In this document: in pieces, positions 5,514-15,840 of the stretch
How positions within the stretch are numbered: position 1 is the stretch's first letter
Layout of the letters: each line of letters starts with the position of its first letter
Made by a program: the position numbers and the translations under genes
Source: a virus
DNA length: 15,840 nucleotides
Strand: one strand, 5' to 3'
Virus record (IMG/VR): IMGVR_UViG_3300045988_110782
Notes under the pieces: model-generated
Seen by the model: only the letters and a program-made list of their open reading frames with translations
Told to the model about the DNA's origin: nothing
Database searches by the model: none

Positions 5514-5531
5514 ATGCTTCACGCGAAACAT
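5514..5531. promoter_or_regulatory. Degenerate copy of the 18-bp palindrome family
   Basis: atgCttcacgCgaaacat differs at 2 of 18 positions from ATGTTTCACGTGAAACAT. It lies 1 nt downstream of the capsid stop codon, in the capsid/knob intergenic region. Confidence 0.35.
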
Positions 5532-9319: not shown

Positions 9320-9336
9320 TACGCTTCCTCCTTAAA

Positions 9337-9408
9337 CTGGACTAGCAGGAATCGAACCCGCATTGACGGAAATCAAAATCCGTTGTCCTACCGTTAGACG
9401 ATAGTCCC
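9337..9408 (-). tRNA. tRNA-Gln(UUG)-like gene with an 8-nt anticodon loop and a G1.A72 mismatch; no encoded CCA
   Basis: Hand-folded cloverleaf of the 72-nt minus strand: GGGACUA UC GUCU AACGGUA GGAC A ACGGA UUUUGAUU UCCGU CAAU GCGGG UUCGAUU CCUGC UAGUCCA G. U8, A14, the GG in the D loop and the UUCGAUU T-loop are all present. The anticodon stem and the A72/G73 end match my recollection of Firmicute tRNA-Gln. The loop has one U more than the canonical 7 nt. Confidence 0.7.
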
Positions 9409-9414
9409 TAGAAA

Positions 9415-9430
9415 TGTTTCACGTGAAACA
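9415..9430. promoter_or_regulatory. Palindrome family copy (16-bp perfect core TGTTTCACGTGAAACA)
   Basis: It lies 4 nt downstream of the holin stop codon and 6 nt upstream of the tRNA 5' end on the minus strand. Confidence 0.5.
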
Positions 9431-9434
9431 CTTC

Positions 9435-9764
9435 TTATTTTTTCGGTGCTTTCTCCAAGATTTCTCTAATCTTTTCCGGCACTAAGCTTTTATTTATCCG
9501 GCTTACATTTTCCAAAATACTGCCGATTTCCATTAAAATAATATAAACGCAAATACTCTCGAGCGCCGGAACTCTAAAGCCCATATCAAGAAAACTCTGC
9601 CCGTAGTCAATCAAAAACCCAACAGCCACAATGACGATTTCGCCGAACTTGTTAAAAAGTCCGTCACGCATCACACTGCTGTTAAAATTACTGTTTTTAA
9701 CTGCCATAACAATTCCGGTAATAAAATCAAGCGCAATAAACAACATTACAATTACAATACTCAT
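9435..9764 (-). CDS. Holin (phage_holin_4_1 / phiLC3-TcdE-like family)
   Basis: The ORF track start at 9794 is a TTG. I prefer the ATG at 9764 (MSIVIVMLFIALDFITGIVMAV...). Three hydrophobic segments are followed by a charged C-terminus (EKIREILEKAPKK). The LDxITG and E..SIlEN motifs are typical of this holin family. Confidence 0.8.
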   Translation of the reverse strand: MSIVIVMLFIALDFITGIVMAVKNSNFNSSVMRDGLFNKFGEIVIVAVGFLIDYGQSFLDMGFRVPALESICVYIILMEIGSILENVSRINKSLVPEKIREILEKAPKK

Positions 9765-10016
9765 TTTTTCTACTCTTTTCTGCGGCGGTAGCAATTAACA
9801 GAATTACCGCCGCGTTGATAGTTTTAGAGTTTCGCGGTATCGGCTCGCACCAACCACGGCGCGGGGCACGGTTTTTCCCGTCGGTTTACGCCCACAAAAA
9901 CCAATCCGGTACTACTCCACACACTCCAATTACTCGGACATAGGACATTTCGTAAAGAATTTAGGAGGAATTTAGTAATTTAAGTGTGTGCAATAGTACC
10001 GTATAAATTATGTTTT

Positions 10017-10109
10017 ATGCCATGTACGGCAAGCCATGCCGCTCCATGCCGGTTTCGCCGTACATGCCATAAATGCCATTTCTACGCCGTGCAATGCCGT
10101 GAATGGCAT
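10017..10109. repeat. Cluster of short iterated ATGCC(AT) motifs
   Basis: ATGCC starts at 10017, 10036, 10046, 10065, 10073 and 10094, with an inverted GGCAT at 10105-10109. Most copies extend to (C)CATGCC or ATGCCAT. Confidence 0.8.
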
Positions 10110-10115
10110 TGCACG
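10086..10115 (-). other. 12-bp perfect hairpin immediately downstream of the SSB-like gene
   Basis: CCGTGCAATGCC gtgaat GGCATTGCACGG begins 6 nt after the stop codon at 10122-10124. No U-tract follows on either strand, so terminator function is uncertain. Confidence 0.4.
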
Positions 10116-10121
10116 GAGATC

Positions 10122-10561: not shown

Positions 10562-10579
10562 ATGTTTCACGTGAAACAT
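10562..10579. promoter_or_regulatory. Palindrome family copy (18-bp perfect ATGTTTCACGTGAAACAT)
   Basis: It lies in the intergenic region between CDS 10604..10885 and CDS 10122..10520. It is nested inside a second inverted repeat, GCAAGCA (10556-10562) / TGCTTGC (10590-10596). Confidence 0.55.
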
Positions 10580-11822: not shown

Positions 11823-13997
11823 TTATTCGCAATTATCTATAAAATTTTTTCCTATGATTTCTGAATACTCGTCTGTAATGCCTAAAGTGTAAGTTGTATC
11901 TACTATAGCTATATTTGACGCTGTTGTAAATGTTGATTCTTTACCTATATAATCTGTTATTGTTATCGAATGTATGTTCGATTCATTAAAATAAGACACG
12001 GTTCGTCCAGAATCAGTAAATAACTTTCCTATTTTAAAATCGGCAATTCCGTTTCCGCGCTCTAACTCTGCCGCACCTTTTTGTTTCGATAAACCAGATA
12101 CCGTTACGTGTAAAACATCTTTTCTTATTTCTCCTGTTTTTTTATCTTTGTCATCAGATATATACGCGTACTTTTTAGCTCCAAGCGTTTTAAACTTTTT
12201 ATAGTATCCATCGTCATCCCATACGCCTAAATAATATCTAGTTACCGTTCCATTATCGTTTTTTCGATCTGAATAATTTCTGTAACGTTGATGTTGTGCT
12301 AATAAATACTCATTGCGATCTTTAAAACTTTGTAAGTGTTGTTTATTTATAAATTTAACACTATCAGTGTCAGCGTAAACAAAATCCCATCCTACGGCGT
12401 CTATCATTTTTTGTAATTCCCATCTTGCATTAGCTGTAATGTATACCCCCCATTGATAGAGTAAAAACGAATTTTTTGAAGCTGTATAACTAGCTATTGA
12501 TTCTAACAAATCCGGTGTAACTTTTGTCCACTCTCCGTCTGTGTAAACTATTTCATCATGGCATATGTCTGTAACCATCGTTCCAAAAACAGAATTTAAA
12601 CTGTTTTTACTTTTCATATACTCATATTCTTTTCCGTCAACGTCCTTTAACTGTGTTTTTTTATCGTAAAACTCTAGCATTGTATTTACTATAGGCTCTG
12701 GTAAATAATCTTTTTTTGCCATGTACCCGCTCAACCATTCTATTTCCTCAAAATGGTATTGATTGCAGATAATTATAAAATCTAATTCAGTACAAGCATA
12801 TGTTACCCATTCTGCGGATAACACTCGCCCGTTGTCATTTATGTATTCTTTGCTAAATGATGTACAGTGTGCGAAATCAATATACGGAACTGTCACATCA
12901 TCATGTACTGTTATAGATTTAAACGTTACTTGCATAATGATAGCGTTTTGTTTTTTGTTACAATCAGATAATAATTGTGTAAAGTTTTTTGGTACATACT
13001 CTATAAACGGTGTCATAGGGTATAAGTCCGAGCATATGCATGATGGATAACTTGAGACTCTATCCATACTGTAGACATTCTCAACTATTGCATCTGCGTA
13101 ATATCTACTTGCATGTGTATTGCCGCCGCGAAAAGCTTTTCGTAATAGTGTATATACTTCCGGTGTAGTCATGAGACTTTCAAATAATTCCCTATAATGT
13201 TTGTCCTCTCTGCAAGCTTTGCGCATTTCACGGCGCACATATCCGGTCGATGTTAGCGGTATTGTTGCTAATGTGTCATTATAATCATCCATTTTTGACA
13301 GTATGCATTCTTCAAGCCCTTTTACATCGTTATAATCATATGCTAACTCTGTTCCTGTTTGTGGTGTGTCTGGTGTCCGTACTTTTTTATAATCATATGT
13401 GTCTAGTAATTTTCGATGAATACAAAATTTTGAATTTTCGCAAAACTTTGCTAAACTCATATTAGATAAAAAATATGAACATCTAAACTCAAAATGAGGG
13501 AATGTTTCACGTGAAACATCTAGCCTATTTACTGTTTTTAGATAATCAGATTTTAAACAAGCATTGAATTTTATGACCTTATGGGATTCTCGTGCAAAAA
13601 GTGATACTATATATAAAAAATCCTTTACAAACATAAATTCATAAGCTAAATTATGGACATAAATGACTAATTGTTTTGATGCTGATAATTCCAAGTATTC
13701 TCCTAGTTTACTTAGAAACTTAGTAAATTCTTCCCACCGTGTGCCAAAACAAACATTTCCTTTGTAACAAAACTGCCAATGGTACATAAATGCATAAGGT
13801 TTTTCGCTGTTTATTGTTGTAGTTTCTATATCAAATGTTGCAGGGCTATCTATATAAGCAATAGCCCTTTTTCCTTTTTTTCTGACTGTAGTATAATTCC
13901 AATTTATTGCGTTATATGGATAATCGTATACTGTGTAAACTGTTTCATTTTTTGTATATTCTTTCCCATTTTCTGTATAAAATGTTTGTACTACCAT
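11823..13997 (-). CDS. Family-B DNA polymerase, protein-primed (phi29 gp2-like)
   Basis: 724 aa. Motifs: Exo I FDIETT; Exo II HNLAYEF; Exo III YDYNDV; motif A DRVSSYPS (Dx2SLYP type); motif B KNSLNSVFG (Kx3NSxYG); motif C YADTDS; and KKY (KxY). Its ATG overlaps the stop of the upstream ORF (ATGGTAG). Confidence 0.95.
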   Translation of the reverse strand: MVVQTFYTENGKEYTKNETVYTVYDYPYNAINWNYTTVRKKGKRAIAYIDSPATFDIETTTINSEKPYAFMYHWQFCYKGNVCFGTRWEEFTKFLSKLGEYLELSASKQLVIYVHNLAYEFMFVKDFLYIVSLFARESHKVIKFNACLKSDYLKTVNRLDVSRETFPHFEFRCSYFLSNMSLAKFCENSKFCIHRKLLDTYDYKKVRTPDTPQTGTELAYDYNDVKGLEECILSKMDDYNDTLATIPLTSTGYVRREMRKACREDKHYRELFESLMTTPEVYTLLRKAFRGGNTHASRYYADAIVENVYSMDRVSSYPSCICSDLYPMTPFIEYVPKNFTQLLSDCNKKQNAIIMQVTFKSITVHDDVTVPYIDFAHCTSFSKEYINDNGRVLSAEWVTYACTELDFIIICNQYHFEEIEWLSGYMAKKDYLPEPIVNTMLEFYDKKTQLKDVDGKEYEYMKSKNSLNSVFGTMVTDICHDEIVYTDGEWTKVTPDLLESIASYTASKNSFLLYQWGVYITANARWELQKMIDAVGWDFVYADTDSVKFINKQHLQSFKDRNEYLLAQHQRYRNYSDRKNDNGTVTRYYLGVWDDDGYYKKFKTLGAKKYAYISDDKDKKTGEIRKDVLHVTVSGLSKQKGAAELERGNGIADFKIGKLFTDSGRTVSYFNESNIHSITITDYIGKESTFTTASNIAIVDTTYTLGITDEYSEIIGKNFIDNCE
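13502..13519. promoter_or_regulatory. Palindrome family copy (18-bp perfect) inside the polymerase CDS
   Basis: ATGTTTCACGTGAAACAT at 13502-13519 is identical to the copy at 10562-10579. In the polymerase frame it encodes part of DVSRETF. Confidence 0.5.
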
Positions 13998-15549: not shown

Positions 15550-15840
15550 AGTTATCCACATCGAACAAGTGTTCGTGCTAGACGGACTAATGGTGTCCGT
15601 CTACCGCGGACACTGTTTTTTCGTGTTGTGCAAACAACTTTGAAAACTCGTTGAATTGTCTGAAAACTTAAAAATCAATATGCATTATGCACAAAGATTT
15701 AGTAGATCTTTGTGCATTTTTACTATTGACAAATTGGAATAGATCAACTTTTAGGTAGCGAATTTAACATCTGATTTATCGAACGTATGTTTGTCTTTTT
15801 GGGGAAAACAGTGTCCGCGCTACACGGACTATGTAACTTT
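15550..15840. repeat. Right inverted terminal repeat (genome terminus)
   Basis: Reverse complement of 1-291 with a single mismatch (15592). The window ends ...ATGTAACTTT-3'. Confidence 0.95.
15688..15724 (+). terminator. Mirror copy of the ITR terminator hairpin, facing outward
   Basis: The same 11-bp stem (15688-15698/15706-15716) is followed by TTTTTACT on the plus strand. No plus-strand gene lies upstream, so it is probably present only because it is part of the ITR. Confidence 0.4.

Follow-up and report, generated by a model that had tools for sequence, protein, structure and literature searches.

Why does a small phage carry a tRNA gene whose anticodon loop has eight nucleotides rather than seven, and can such a tRNA still decode? 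We addressed this question for one locus in the window, which is the whole 15,840-bp stretch of DNA analysed (IMG/VR record IMGVR_UViG_3300045988_110782). The window is the complete genome of a protein-primed phage with 291-bp ITRs, and all of its genes lie on the minus strand. The features of the locus are listed in Table 1.

Table 1. Positions of the tRNA gene, its parts and its neighbours in the window.
Feature	Position	Strand	Remarks
Holin, 109 aa from ATG at 9764	9435..9764	minus	PHROG 199; Pfam PF05105 Phage_holin_4_1; directly upstream of tRNA
parS site (ParB/Spo0J binding site, predicted), TGTTTCACGTGAAACA	9415..9430	.	6 nt upstream of tRNA 5′ end
tRNA-Gln-derived gene, 72 nt	9337..9408	minus	5′ end G1 = 9408; discriminator G = 9337; CCA not encoded
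Acceptor stem	9338..9408	minus	9408-9402 with 9344-9338; G1.A72 mismatch
Anticodon arm	9366..9383	minus	stem ACGGA (9383-9379) with UCCGU (9370-9366)
Anticodon loop, 8 nt, UUUUGAUU	9371..9378	minus	U32 U33 U34 U35 G36 A37 U38 + one extra U
Shine-Dalgarno sequence AAGGAGG of ATPase gene	9327..9333	minus	starts 3 nt past discriminator; ATG 9319-9317
Packaging ATPase (phi29-type, gp16-like), 350 aa	8267..9319	minus	PHROG 2150, E 8e-51; Pfam PF05894 Podovirus_Gp16; directly downstream of tRNA

A phage-encoded tRNA-Gln gene beside a parS site

An earlier note, made from the nucleotide sequence, had described a convincing cloverleaf at this position and had proposed scoring it with tRNA predictors; both predictions and fold support it. 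ARAGORN returned 'tRNA-??? anticodon (ttga)', which denotes an 8-nt loop, and Rfam RF00005 matched over its full length (1-71/71) with 47.4 bits and an E-value of 1.3e-7, the gathering score of this family being 29. The minimum free energy (MFE) structure of the 72-mer, calculated with ViennaRNA, was exactly the cloverleaf with the 8-nt loop (-23.2 kcal/mol). The stems of 7/4/5/5 bp and the score above the family threshold are those of a canonical elongator tRNA, and the window allele has the full set of tertiary nucleotides (U8, A14, G18G19, U33, G53-U54-U55-C56-R57-A58 and C61) with zero defects. It departs from the canonical form in the anticodon loop, which has 8 nt instead of 7. As the note had read it, the stem encloses the equivalent of a Gln UUG loop with one additional U; the order U33-U34-U35-G36-A37 is kept, though inside an 8-nt loop, and the 7-nt relatives have UUG or CUG. 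The extra U lies within a U-run (9372-9370) that spans the loop/stem junction. A canonical 7-nt loop would need a bulged U39, in an alternative fold that costs +4.3 kcal/mol.

Bacterial tRNA-Gln is identified by a weak U1-A72 pair and the discriminator G73, which are recognized by GlnRS and GatCAB. The window tRNA has G73, and its pair 1-72 is G.A, a feature that the note had pointed out together with the missing CCA. Over 37 alleles from relatives (see below), pair 1-72 was UA in 19 and unpaired in 18, the variants being U1-A72, G1.A72 and A1.A72. The 3′ trailer is UUU. The gene, of the class that we call type A, is ~79% identical to annotated phage tRNA-Gln genes. Because ARAGORN, Rfam, the MFE fold, compensatory changes in all four helices and this identity to phage tRNA-Gln genes all agree, we conclude that, as far as sequence can tell, the locus is a genuine phage-encoded tRNA-Gln gene.

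The tRNA sits directly between two same-strand coding sequences without a promoter or terminator of its own, and no sigma-70-like promoter or intrinsic terminator was found from the holin stop codon to the start of the ATPase gene. PHROG and Pfam matches agree with the placement between holin and packaging ATPase given in the note, and the 109-aa holin gene call recurs in identical contigs. The distances that it had given, 17 nt from the discriminator to the ATPase ATG (9319) and 6 nt from the tRNA 5′ end to a palindrome copy, were likewise correct. The ribosome-binding AAGGAGG is present as described, but starts at the fourth nucleotide after the discriminator and not 5 nt after it, a trivial difference. 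Among relatives, the spacer before the ATPase is variable (pi 0.13).

The palindrome satisfies the 16-bp parS consensus TGTTNCACGTGAAACA; TGTTTCACGTGAAACA occurs three times exactly and once as a variant in the window, where 0.16 occurrences are expected. The same 16-mer is the parS consensus in the ParB/parS and related chromosome-organisation literature, and phi29 has parS sites, which are used for spore entrapment. For the phage of the window, such sites point to a spore-forming member of the Clostridia as the probable host. The site is found upstream of the tRNA in all relatives and, in a sister clade that lacks the tRNA, directly upstream of the ATPase ribosome-binding site (RBS). When metagenomes were scanned for the palindrome together with the T-arm, the matches were unrelated bacterial contigs of 30-66% GC in which it stood beside various tRNAs, and this occurrence beside assorted bacterial tRNAs led to its identification as parS. 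We conclude from the consensus match that the palindrome next to the tRNA is a canonical parS site. The earlier reader had listed a palindrome copy without recognizing it as parS. An RNA hairpin, terminator or processing site had also been considered for this sequence, and was dropped once it was matched to parS.

Loop alleles among related phages

At the nucleotide level the locus matched nothing among GenBank phages, and a protein search returned only relatives that were at most 43% identical and that lacked tRNAs. The comparison set consisted of 53 related contigs from many gut samples, with 37 tRNA alleles. All 53 carried the tRNA-Gln at the same site. Their anticodon loops were 7-nt UUG in 19 contigs, CUG in three and UUA in six, had 6 nt in ten and 8 nt in 14, and were broken in one. 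The loop insertion that the earlier note had suggested looking for is thus present in 14 of the 53 contigs and constitutes the commonest allele class after UUG. A pattern combining the anticodon arm and the T-arm found no similar tRNA in 185,579 bacterial species genomes (GTDB), and the GTDB species genomes yielded no ATPase relative either. The contig MT838061, which is of human-faecal origin and has a tRNA that is 76% similar, was set aside as it represents the tRNA array of an unrelated large phage.

Across the 37 alleles, double changes were seen in 10 of the 21 base pairs, and 96.6% of the cells were paired, as compared with 86% in shuffles. Covariation was present in all four stems of the tRNA, with compensatory double changes in three of the five anticodon-stem pairs. 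These comparisons indicate that the cloverleaf structure is maintained in the family by compensatory evolution.

The 14 contigs with the 8-nt loop go back to 8 or more independent samples or assemblies (IMG/VR, ENA and Logan) and differed in SNPs elsewhere. The same tRNA body as in the window occurred with the 7-nt loop UUUUGAU in one relative (L108) and with the 6-nt loop UUUGAU in another (L049). The extra U was missing from the U-run in 16 of 31 aligned relatives, and the outgroup alleles (type B and hybrids) had 7-nt loops. The alignments indicate that these phages truly possess and inherit the 8-nt allele, and that it was derived from the 7-nt form by insertion of a U at the 3′ loop/stem junction.

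Changes in the length of homopolymer runs, counted over genome-runs, affected 23% of those in the tRNA, 11% of those in other non-coding sequence and 0.5-2% of those in coding sequence. The anticodon loop was among the most haplotype-rich segments of the tRNA, with 10 haplotypes as compared with 3 for the T-loop, and the T-arm was the most conserved segment (entropy 0.09-0.2). Substitutions in the anticodon itself were restricted to U34C, which still specifies Gln, and G36A, which gives an ochre anticodon; this restriction shows that decoding is of importance to at least some members of the family. The six UUA contigs had alleles that scored 60-63 bits with Rfam, with a compensated T-stem pair among them.

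Gain, loss and constraint

Sister clades whose ATPases are 56-58% identical to that of the window have the syntenic order holin-parS-RBS-ATPase with a spacer of ~30 nt and without the tRNA, and more distant relatives are also devoid of it. The absence from sister clades with the same gene order implies that the tRNA is a clade-specific insertion, which the ancestor of this human-gut phi29-like genus would have acquired between parS and the ATPase RBS. In a further contig beyond the 53 (L069), the tRNA was deleted after the D-arm, so that two thirds of it are gone, and the D-loop remnant is now the RBS of the ATPase. Judging from this deletion and from its absence in the syntenic sister clades and the distant relatives, the tRNA is dispensable.

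Does the tRNA decay freely? Structural defects beyond the loop were found in 8 of 15 abnormal-loop alleles and in 5 of 21 canonical ones, which is a trend only (Fisher p = 0.09). Those within the 8-nt clade comprised C5.A68, U11.C24, G18A and a T-loop deletion with A4.C69. A functional feature has been lost and relatives carry further lesions, as in a pseudogene. The rate of change, on the other hand, was not the neutral one expected of a tRNA pseudogene. Nucleotide diversity (pi) of the tRNA body was 0.060 in the type-A carriers, as compared with 0.20-0.26 at the adjacent four-fold sites of the ATPase gene and 0.13 in the 17-nt spacer, and 0.021 as compared with 0.09-0.20 in the 8-nt clade. 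The body therefore evolves at a rate 3-4 times below that of the four-fold sites beside it (pi of 0.02-0.06 and 0.09-0.26 overall), a comparison that is less than decisive as a test of neutrality because the low-diversity block reaches 35-190 nt into both flanking genes, so that recent recombination or hitch-hiking is an alternative to constraint. The low pi of the 8-nt clade means that some function of the 8-nt allele may still be selected. Of the four roles among which the earlier note had made no choice, a decaying pseudo-tRNA fits best in that loops of 6, 7 and 8 nt, one deletion and additional defects are all seen; free decay, however, is at odds with the slowly changing body.

Explanations for the enlarged loop

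The reading that we favour, at a probability of about 0.5, is that the accessory tRNA-Gln is dispensable and that its 8-nt form is weakened or inactive, though still excised from polycistronic RNA. One U would have been inserted in the U-run at positions 38/39, turning the loop UUUUGAU (anticodon UUG) into an 8-membered one, in a population where selection may not reliably protect the anticodon loop of an accessory tRNA. Since the loop changes freely in relatives (6, 7 or 8 nt; UUG, CUG or UUA), the extra base most likely weakens the tRNA and is tolerated. With a dispensable tRNA whose loop is not reliably protected, the 8-nt allele is most likely a hypomorphic or inactive decoder at an early stage of functional loss, and it would be expected to decode less well; that it evolved as a dedicated frameshifter or recoding device is improbable. 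Located in a polycistronic unit, the tRNA presumably is still transcribed and processed: RNase P would cut its 5′ end and RNase Z its 3′ end (the trailer being CCA-less and U-rich), and its excision would, as a by-product, divide the message into a holin part and an ATPase/late part. As tRNA-SufJ and SufA6 show, an 8-membered loop remains capable of zero-frame decoding when the additional base lies outside positions 33-37 (PMC4238358). Zero-frame decoding by loops of this type counts against an inactive decoder.

Comparison with known tRNAs places the window allele between functional and decaying forms. Like the accessory tRNAs of other phages (e.g. the T5-like tRNA-Gln), it has a full cloverleaf, the UUG triplet, A37 and the sequence identity given above, and it lies among same-strand phage genes and varies in presence between related phages. 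Unlike them, it is the sole tRNA of a 15.8-kb protein-primed phi29-like genome and combines the 8-nt loop with a G.A pair 1-72. It resembles tRNA pseudogenes and decaying phage tRNAs in having lost the 7-nt loop and in having relatives with a T-loop deletion, mismatches, G18A or a full deletion, but differs from them in its high-scoring, slowly changing body and in the many relatives with apparently functional UUG, CUG or UUA alleles.

An alternative that we regard as unlikely, although worth weighing, and that is close to the nuclease escape listed in the earlier note, is that the tRNA is a functional Gln decoder whose altered loop escapes, or acts as a decoy for, a host defence that targets tRNAs. 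The sole phage tRNA would then stand in for a host tRNA-Gln that suffers cleavage or modification during infection, and the loop variants (changes at 32/38, U34C and the extra U) would be escape alleles. The haplotype richness of the anticodon loop relative to the T-loop, which is the reverse of normal tRNA evolution, is consistent with such escape, as is the conservation of the body when set against four-fold sites, which holds for the 8-nt alleles too. Phages that overcome defences directed at tRNAs have been reported to carry just one accessory tRNA, and it has been proposed that substitutions in the anticodon loop let phage tRNAs escape (PMC10264068, PMC11555353). The cases in the literature, however, are substitutions and not insertions. 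Bulging of the extra U could in principle restore a canonical 7-nt loop, but only at the energetic cost given above. The 6-nt loops, which occur in at least 4 backgrounds, are unable to form a normal anticodon loop at all, and the deletion in one relative and the absence from sister clades also speak against this reading. Homopolymer indels are found in other non-coding runs as well, so that the changes in loop length need no selection. Moreover, the analysis identified neither a host nor a Gln-specific bacterial anticodon nuclease.

More doubtful is the proposal, another of the roles in the earlier note, that the locus is a tRNA-shaped punctuation signal for mRNA, with anticodon-independent cutting by RNase P and RNase Z as its selected function. 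The cut would split holin (early/middle) RNA from ATPase/late RNA, and the new 5′ end, a few nt before a strong Shine-Dalgarno sequence, could stabilise the downstream message. The position of the tRNA, 3 nt before the Shine-Dalgarno sequence and 6 nt after parS between same-strand genes that lack an intervening promoter or terminator, is suggestive in this respect. So are the strong conservation of the T-arm and a loop that varies freely in length on a conserved body. In all relatives the trailer is U-rich and CCA-less, and such a trailer suits RNase Z, as in the processing of B. subtilis tRNAs. The arrangement resembles mitochondrial tRNA punctuation and bacterial operons cut by RNase P/Z in that the tRNA abuts same-strand coding sequences and its maturation would cleave the mRNA. 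Unlike in those systems, the syntenic sister phages manage without the tRNA, keeping holin, parS, RBS and ATPase with their short spacer, and the acceptor/T-arm is not conserved preferentially over features related to decoding; its defects (L038, L043, L046, L053, L055, L045 and L062) are at least as frequent as those of the D/anticodon arms. The loss of two thirds of the tRNA in L069, the compensatory changes in the anticodon and D stems, which the processing enzymes do not need, and the confinement of anticodon substitutions to Gln or ochre likewise argue against a selected signal. The part of the proposal that would stand is the cutting itself, which, given that no promoter or terminator separates the genes, is almost unavoidable if the tRNA is matured.

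We consider marginally less probable again an outright arms race in which a defence of the host attacks the anticodon loop of tRNA-Gln or senses it. The UUG, CUG, UUA, 6-nt and 8-nt forms would in that case be selected escape, decoy or recoding variants, the 8-nt tRNA would be matured and active, and the combination of a conserved body with a labile loop would reflect selection and not drift.

Recoding leaves little trace in these genomes. Across the related contigs, no in-frame stops, frameshifted genes or codon-usage shifts tracked the alleles. TAA is the main stop codon in all allele classes, and CAA makes up ~50% of the Gln codons in every one of them, so that adaptation of codon usage to the allele, which we had considered, gave no signal (CAA fraction ~0.5 throughout). 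The six contigs with a Gln-type UUA anticodon, which is of the ochre-suppressor type, recall the suppressor tRNAs of recoded gut phages. In contrast to those phages, no in-frame TAA or TAG was seen in the conserved genes of the UUA contigs, and the window allele, whose anticodon is not a stop anticodon, is no suppressor. Stop-codon recoding was accordingly rejected: the few in-frame stops reported by tblastn lay at ORF ends or over-extended starts and were not tied to the UUA alleles.

The role of a +1 frameshift or quadruplet decoder, which the earlier note had also offered, is very unlikely. Such a tRNA-Gln would decode CAA in the A site with a +1 slip, yielding a shifted product or rescuing a frameshifted gene like sufJ, sufA6 and sufB2. 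ARAGORN indeed reads a 4-base anticodon, 'ttga', and relative to L108 the window allele has the single-base insertion that creates an 8-nt loop. One-base insertions giving 8-nt loops are classic +1 suppressors even when they lie beside the stem, away from the anticodon (PMC4238358). The same 8-membered anticodon loop arises by a one-nucleotide insertion in sufJ (C31.5), sufA6/sufB2 (G37.5) and sufD, and the insertion in the window, at the loop/stem junction, mirrors position 31.5 of sufJ on the opposite side with U33-A37 intact (PMC4238358). The suf suppressors, however, were obtained by laboratory selection against a known frameshift mutation, whereas the window has neither a site to suppress nor a shifted gene, and alleles of 6 nt and 7 nt occur alongside in phages that are otherwise equivalent. 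All ORFs of the window are colinear with those of relatives that have 6-nt or 7-nt loops, close relatives of both kinds encode the same proteins, and the gene set and its overlaps resemble ordinary translational coupling. When, reciprocally, 687 ORFs from the relatives were searched against the window, frameshift junctions appeared only at mosaic tail-fibre boundaries. The search for a frameshifted target gene in both directions yielded these junctions and one spurious ORF, and no gene is split or shifted in 8-nt as compared with 7-nt or 6-nt genomes.

Finally, an assembly or sequencing error can be dismissed for practical purposes: the loop-length differences do fall in U-runs, and single-base indels occur in the tRNA and other non-coding runs of many relatives, but the coding regions of the same contigs have almost no frameshifts and essentially indel-free homopolymers, and independent ENA, Logan and IMG assemblies agree on the loop in 14 contigs with different linked SNPs.

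On the favoured reading of a weakened accessory tRNA, the locus is evidence that a tRNA can occur at all in phi29-like gut phages, and offers a clean natural case in which an accessory phage tRNA was gained by insertion between parS and RBS and then drifted by loop indels. It also warns that the '4-base anticodons' which predictors report in phage genomes usually mark attenuated alleles. If the arms race were real, the phage would be a compact system, with one tRNA in 15.8 kb and a natural UUG/CUG/UUA/6-nt/8-nt series for studying selection on the loop, and it would point to an unknown tRNA-Gln-directed host activity. The surroundings of the tRNA may be of broader interest for the biology of gut phi29-like phages than the tRNA itself. 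Upstream of the holin gene lies a conserved, covarying structured RNA of 330 nt (9795-10121), which is a candidate packaging RNA (pRNA); when the non-coding sequence ahead of the holin gene was scanned with Rfam by E-value, the only hits were chance matches to microRNAs, and none belonged to a known pRNA family. The consensus parS sites, in turn, suggest that this gut podophage may hitch-hike in spores in the manner of phi29.

Genome organization and conserved non-coding elements

The window ends in perfect 291-bp inverted terminal repeats (1-291 and 15550-15840), from which we conclude that it is a complete, protein-primed linear genome; the repeats contain internal inverted repeats (12-36/222-246). 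Its gene set, which includes a protein-primed-type DNA polymerase, holin, phi29-type packaging ATPase, major head protein, tail knob, upper collar/connector and endolysin, points to a phi29-like podophage. Every gene lies on the minus strand, whereas the early and late genes of phi29 diverge. No close relative was found among GenBank phages, and the nearest ATPases, from Clostridium phage HM2, Clostridium symbiosum phages and human-faecal contigs, were at most 43% identical.

ATPase protein searches yielded 36 related IMG/VR contigs (ATPase 79-100% identical), and 17 more relatives were taken from ENA and Logan assemblies; almost all are ~15-kb genomes from human-gut samples. Compared with the window, these genomes are strongly mosaic, with modules of 3-25% divergence variously combined. 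Mosaic or split alignments occur chiefly in the two distal tail/appendage genes (632-1177 and 1539-1802), which carry long in-frame tandem repeats (54-nt units in eight copies, and also 33-nt and 21-nt units). The intergenic substitution rate, 0.04-0.05 per site, was below that of coding regions.

The palindrome TGTTTCACGTGAAACA matches the consensus parS site of bacterial ParB/Spo0J and is predicted to be one. The window has four copies (see the table), against 0.16 expected by chance. One lies within the DNA polymerase ORF (13503-13518), where it codes VSRET, and the copy beside the ATPase ribosome-binding site (RBS) is kept even in sister clades that lack the tRNA. In phi29, parS sites are used for carriage into spores (PMC2731898), which suggests the same strategy here in a spore-forming gut host: the window phage may hitch-hike into the spores of a Clostridia host.

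The 327-nt non-coding region upstream of the holin gene folds at -130.6 kcal/mol (z = -7.5 versus shuffles) and is more conserved than its flanking genes. Among ten relatives, in one clade of which the flanking protein is only 38% identical, compensatory changes occurred at 26 of its 57 predicted pairs. A search of Rfam gave no match to this region. We regard it as a good candidate for the packaging RNA (pRNA analogue) of this phage group, or for another structured phage ncRNA. Most sister-clade loci (related contigs L113-L115, L117 and L118) have a similar-sized gap before the holin.

Features of the tRNA locus and other non-coding elements of the window
Feature	Position	Strand	Details
Anticodon arm of the tRNA		(-)	stem ACGGA/UCCGU enclosing UUUUGAUU
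tRNA ends		(-)	G1.A72 mismatch; discriminator G; CCA not encoded; trailer UUU
ATPase Shine-Dalgarno AAGGAGG	9333-9327	(-)	strong; begins 3 nt past the tRNA discriminator
tRNA-ATPase spacing		(-)	17 nt from discriminator to ATPase ATG
Predicted parS, perfect copies TGTTTCACGTGAAACA	9415-9430, 10563-10578, 13503-13518		16-bp palindrome; the copy at the tRNA ends 6 nt upstream of its 5' end
Predicted parS, variant copy TGCTTCACGCGAAACA	5515-5530
Structured non-coding region	9795-10121	(-)	between 132-aa ORF and holin

A tRNA-Gln gene family between holin and ATPase

ARAGORN detected exactly one tRNA in the window, at 9337-9408 on the minus strand, and reported it as 'tRNA-???' with the four-base anticodon 'ttga', that is, with an 8-nt loop. 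The Rfam tRNA model matched it over its full length (47.4 bits versus a gathering score of 29; E 1.3e-7). The cloverleaf is the minimum-free-energy fold of the 72-mer (-23.2 kcal/mol); an alternative fold that regains the canonical 7-nt loop by bulging U39 comes at a cost of +4.3 kcal/mol. None of the universally conserved tRNA nucleotides is missing, and the loop has 8 nt where a canonical tRNA has 7. The earlier note, which had described a tRNA-like cloverleaf with an 8-nt loop and proposed submitting it to tRNA predictors, is thus borne out; the anticodon stem, the mismatched first pair, the lack of CCA and the distances to the ATPase ATG and the palindrome also agree with the sequence. Its coordinates hold, with the strand corrected to minus.

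A tRNA occupies exactly the same position in 53 contigs, in every case with the same palindrome immediately upstream, as 37 distinct alleles whose Rfam scores (30.6-67.9 bits) all exceed the threshold. Their bodies are of type A (that of the window), type B or A/B hybrids. Across these, 96.6% of stem cells hold standard pairs, compensatory double changes occurred at 10 of the 21 pairs with all four helices represented, and type A shares ~79% identity with the tRNA-Gln genes annotated in T5-like phages. These features establish the element as a bona fide tRNA-Gln gene family and not a chance cloverleaf. For a phi29-like genome of less than 16 kb, carrying a tRNA appears unusual, because none was found in the relatives examined outside this genus.

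Anticodon-loop alleles and possible signatures of selection

The 7-nt loops carry UUG (19 contigs), CUG, which is still Gln (three contigs: L122, L123 and L124), or the ochre-suppressor type UUA (six contigs of at least two origins: L048, L056, L059, L060, L068 and L119). A 6-nt loop, UUUGAY, is found in 10 contigs of at least four sequence backgrounds, the 8-nt loop of the window type in 14, and a broken arm in one. The CUG alleles read CAG, and L122 and L123 additionally have G at position 32. UUA derives from the Gln anticodon UUG via G36A, and the UUA alleles are intact and high-scoring. Anticodon substitutions are confined to U34C and G36A; the UUG, CUG and UUA set shows that they yield only Gln anticodons or the stop anticodon one step away. 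In L069 (IMGVR_UViG_3300013382_000050, 1490-1535), a natural deletion mutant, the tRNA is deleted past the D-arm, and the D-loop remnant AGAGGGAGAAC (GAGGGAG), directly before the ATPase ATG, appears to act as the ATPase ribosome-binding site.

The window's tRNA body is also found with a 7-nt (L108) and a 6-nt (L049) loop, so the 8-nt allele is a simple derivative that gained one U where a U-run spans the 3' junction of loop and stem. Changes in homopolymer-run length affected 23% of genome-runs in the tRNA, 11% in other non-coding DNA and 0.5-2% in coding DNA; for indels, the tRNA behaves as unprotected spacer DNA. Non-coding runs of 3-5 nt vary in length in 11-31% of genome-runs, and coding runs are almost invariant.

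In the reading to which we give a probability of about one half, the family would be a real, decoding, accessory tRNA-Gln, and the one-U insertion would have attenuated or abolished normal decoding by the window allele. The phage would tolerate this allele because the tRNA is dispensable, and its RNA probably continues to be transcribed and excised.

The signals of relaxed selection and of maintenance are mixed. The loop-length polymorphism and the L069 deletion stand on the side of relaxed selection. Extra structural lesions occurred in 8 of 15 abnormal-loop alleles versus 5 of 21 canonical ones (Fisher p = 0.09); those of the 8-nt clade are C5.A68 (L038), U11.C24 (L039), G18A (L105 and L107) and a T-loop deletion with A4.C69 (L043). 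Among type-A carriers, pi was 0.060 in the tRNA, compared with 0.20-0.26 at four-fold sites of the adjacent ATPase and 0.13 in the 17-nt spacer; within the 8-nt clade it was 0.021 versus 0.09-0.20 at four-fold sites. These low values count against free decay, as do the restricted anticodon substitutions together with a compensated T-stem pair in one UUA allele. The low-diversity block reaches 35-190 nt into both flanking genes, and with such strong mosaicism, constraint on the tRNA can be mimicked by a short segment that recently recombined or hitch-hiked. The decaying pseudo-tRNA proposed earlier is supported by the polymorphism, deletion and lesions but not by the diversity: the tRNA resembles a young pseudogene, yet evolves at a non-neutral rate.

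Alternative roles of the tRNA

The allele might instead be active and serve to evade or decoy a host activity aimed at tRNA-Gln. This would be compatible with a loop that is a hot spot on a conserved body, but published cases of escape involve substitutions rather than insertions (PMC10264068), and we consider this role unlikely.

No sigma-70-like promoter or intrinsic terminator was found from the holin stop codon to the ATPase start codon, so maturation of the tRNA, if it takes place, requires RNase P and RNase Z cleavage of the polycistronic RNA. In Firmicutes, a CCA-less tRNA gene with a U-rich trailer is of the type that RNase Z processes. The processing signal suggested by the earlier note can be retained as far as this conditional cutting is concerned; that mRNA punctuation is the selected function is quite improbable. 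In sister clades, whose ATPases are 56-58% identical, the genes follow the same order without the tRNA (holin stop, parS, RBS, ATPase), and more distant relatives likewise lack tRNAs. The tRNA is thus a genus-specific insertion between parS and the RBS, and the operon works without it. Defects in the relatives' acceptor stem and T-arm are at least as frequent as in the other arms, and the anticodon and D stems covary, which the processing enzymes do not require. From these three observations, punctuation is probably a by-product.

The window proteins are colinear with those of all relatives, with splits only in the repetitive tail-fibre gene, and comparison of 687 relative ORFs with the window gave no frameshift junction beyond mosaic tail-fibre boundaries and one spurious ORF. 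No in-frame stops tracked with the UUA alleles, and no in-frame TAA or TAG was seen in the conserved genes of the six UUA-allele genomes. TAA is the commonest stop codon everywhere, these genomes included, and the share of CAA among Gln codons is about one half in each allele class alike. Programmed +1 frameshifting, quadruplet decoding and stop-codon recoding are therefore unsupported; for the +1 or quadruplet decoder considered earlier, neither direction of the ORF comparison revealed a shifted gene. Since 8-nt-loop insertions sparing positions 33-37 can read the zero-frame triplet and promote +1 slippage, as in sufJ and sufA6 (PMC4238358), the window allele could, by analogy, decode or shift frame weakly. 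It carries the lesion that defines the frameshift-suppressor tRNAs but has no target, and +1 frameshifting by the 8-nt allele seems very unlikely. The UUA alleles are intact although no recoding was seen.

An artefactual 8-nt loop can practically be dismissed, as assembly error is ruled out by its occurrence in 14 contigs from independent samples with different linked SNPs; the coding regions of these contigs are essentially frameshift-free.

The element belongs among the phage accessory tRNA genes and works like them. The main interest of this tRNA is as a natural allelic series.
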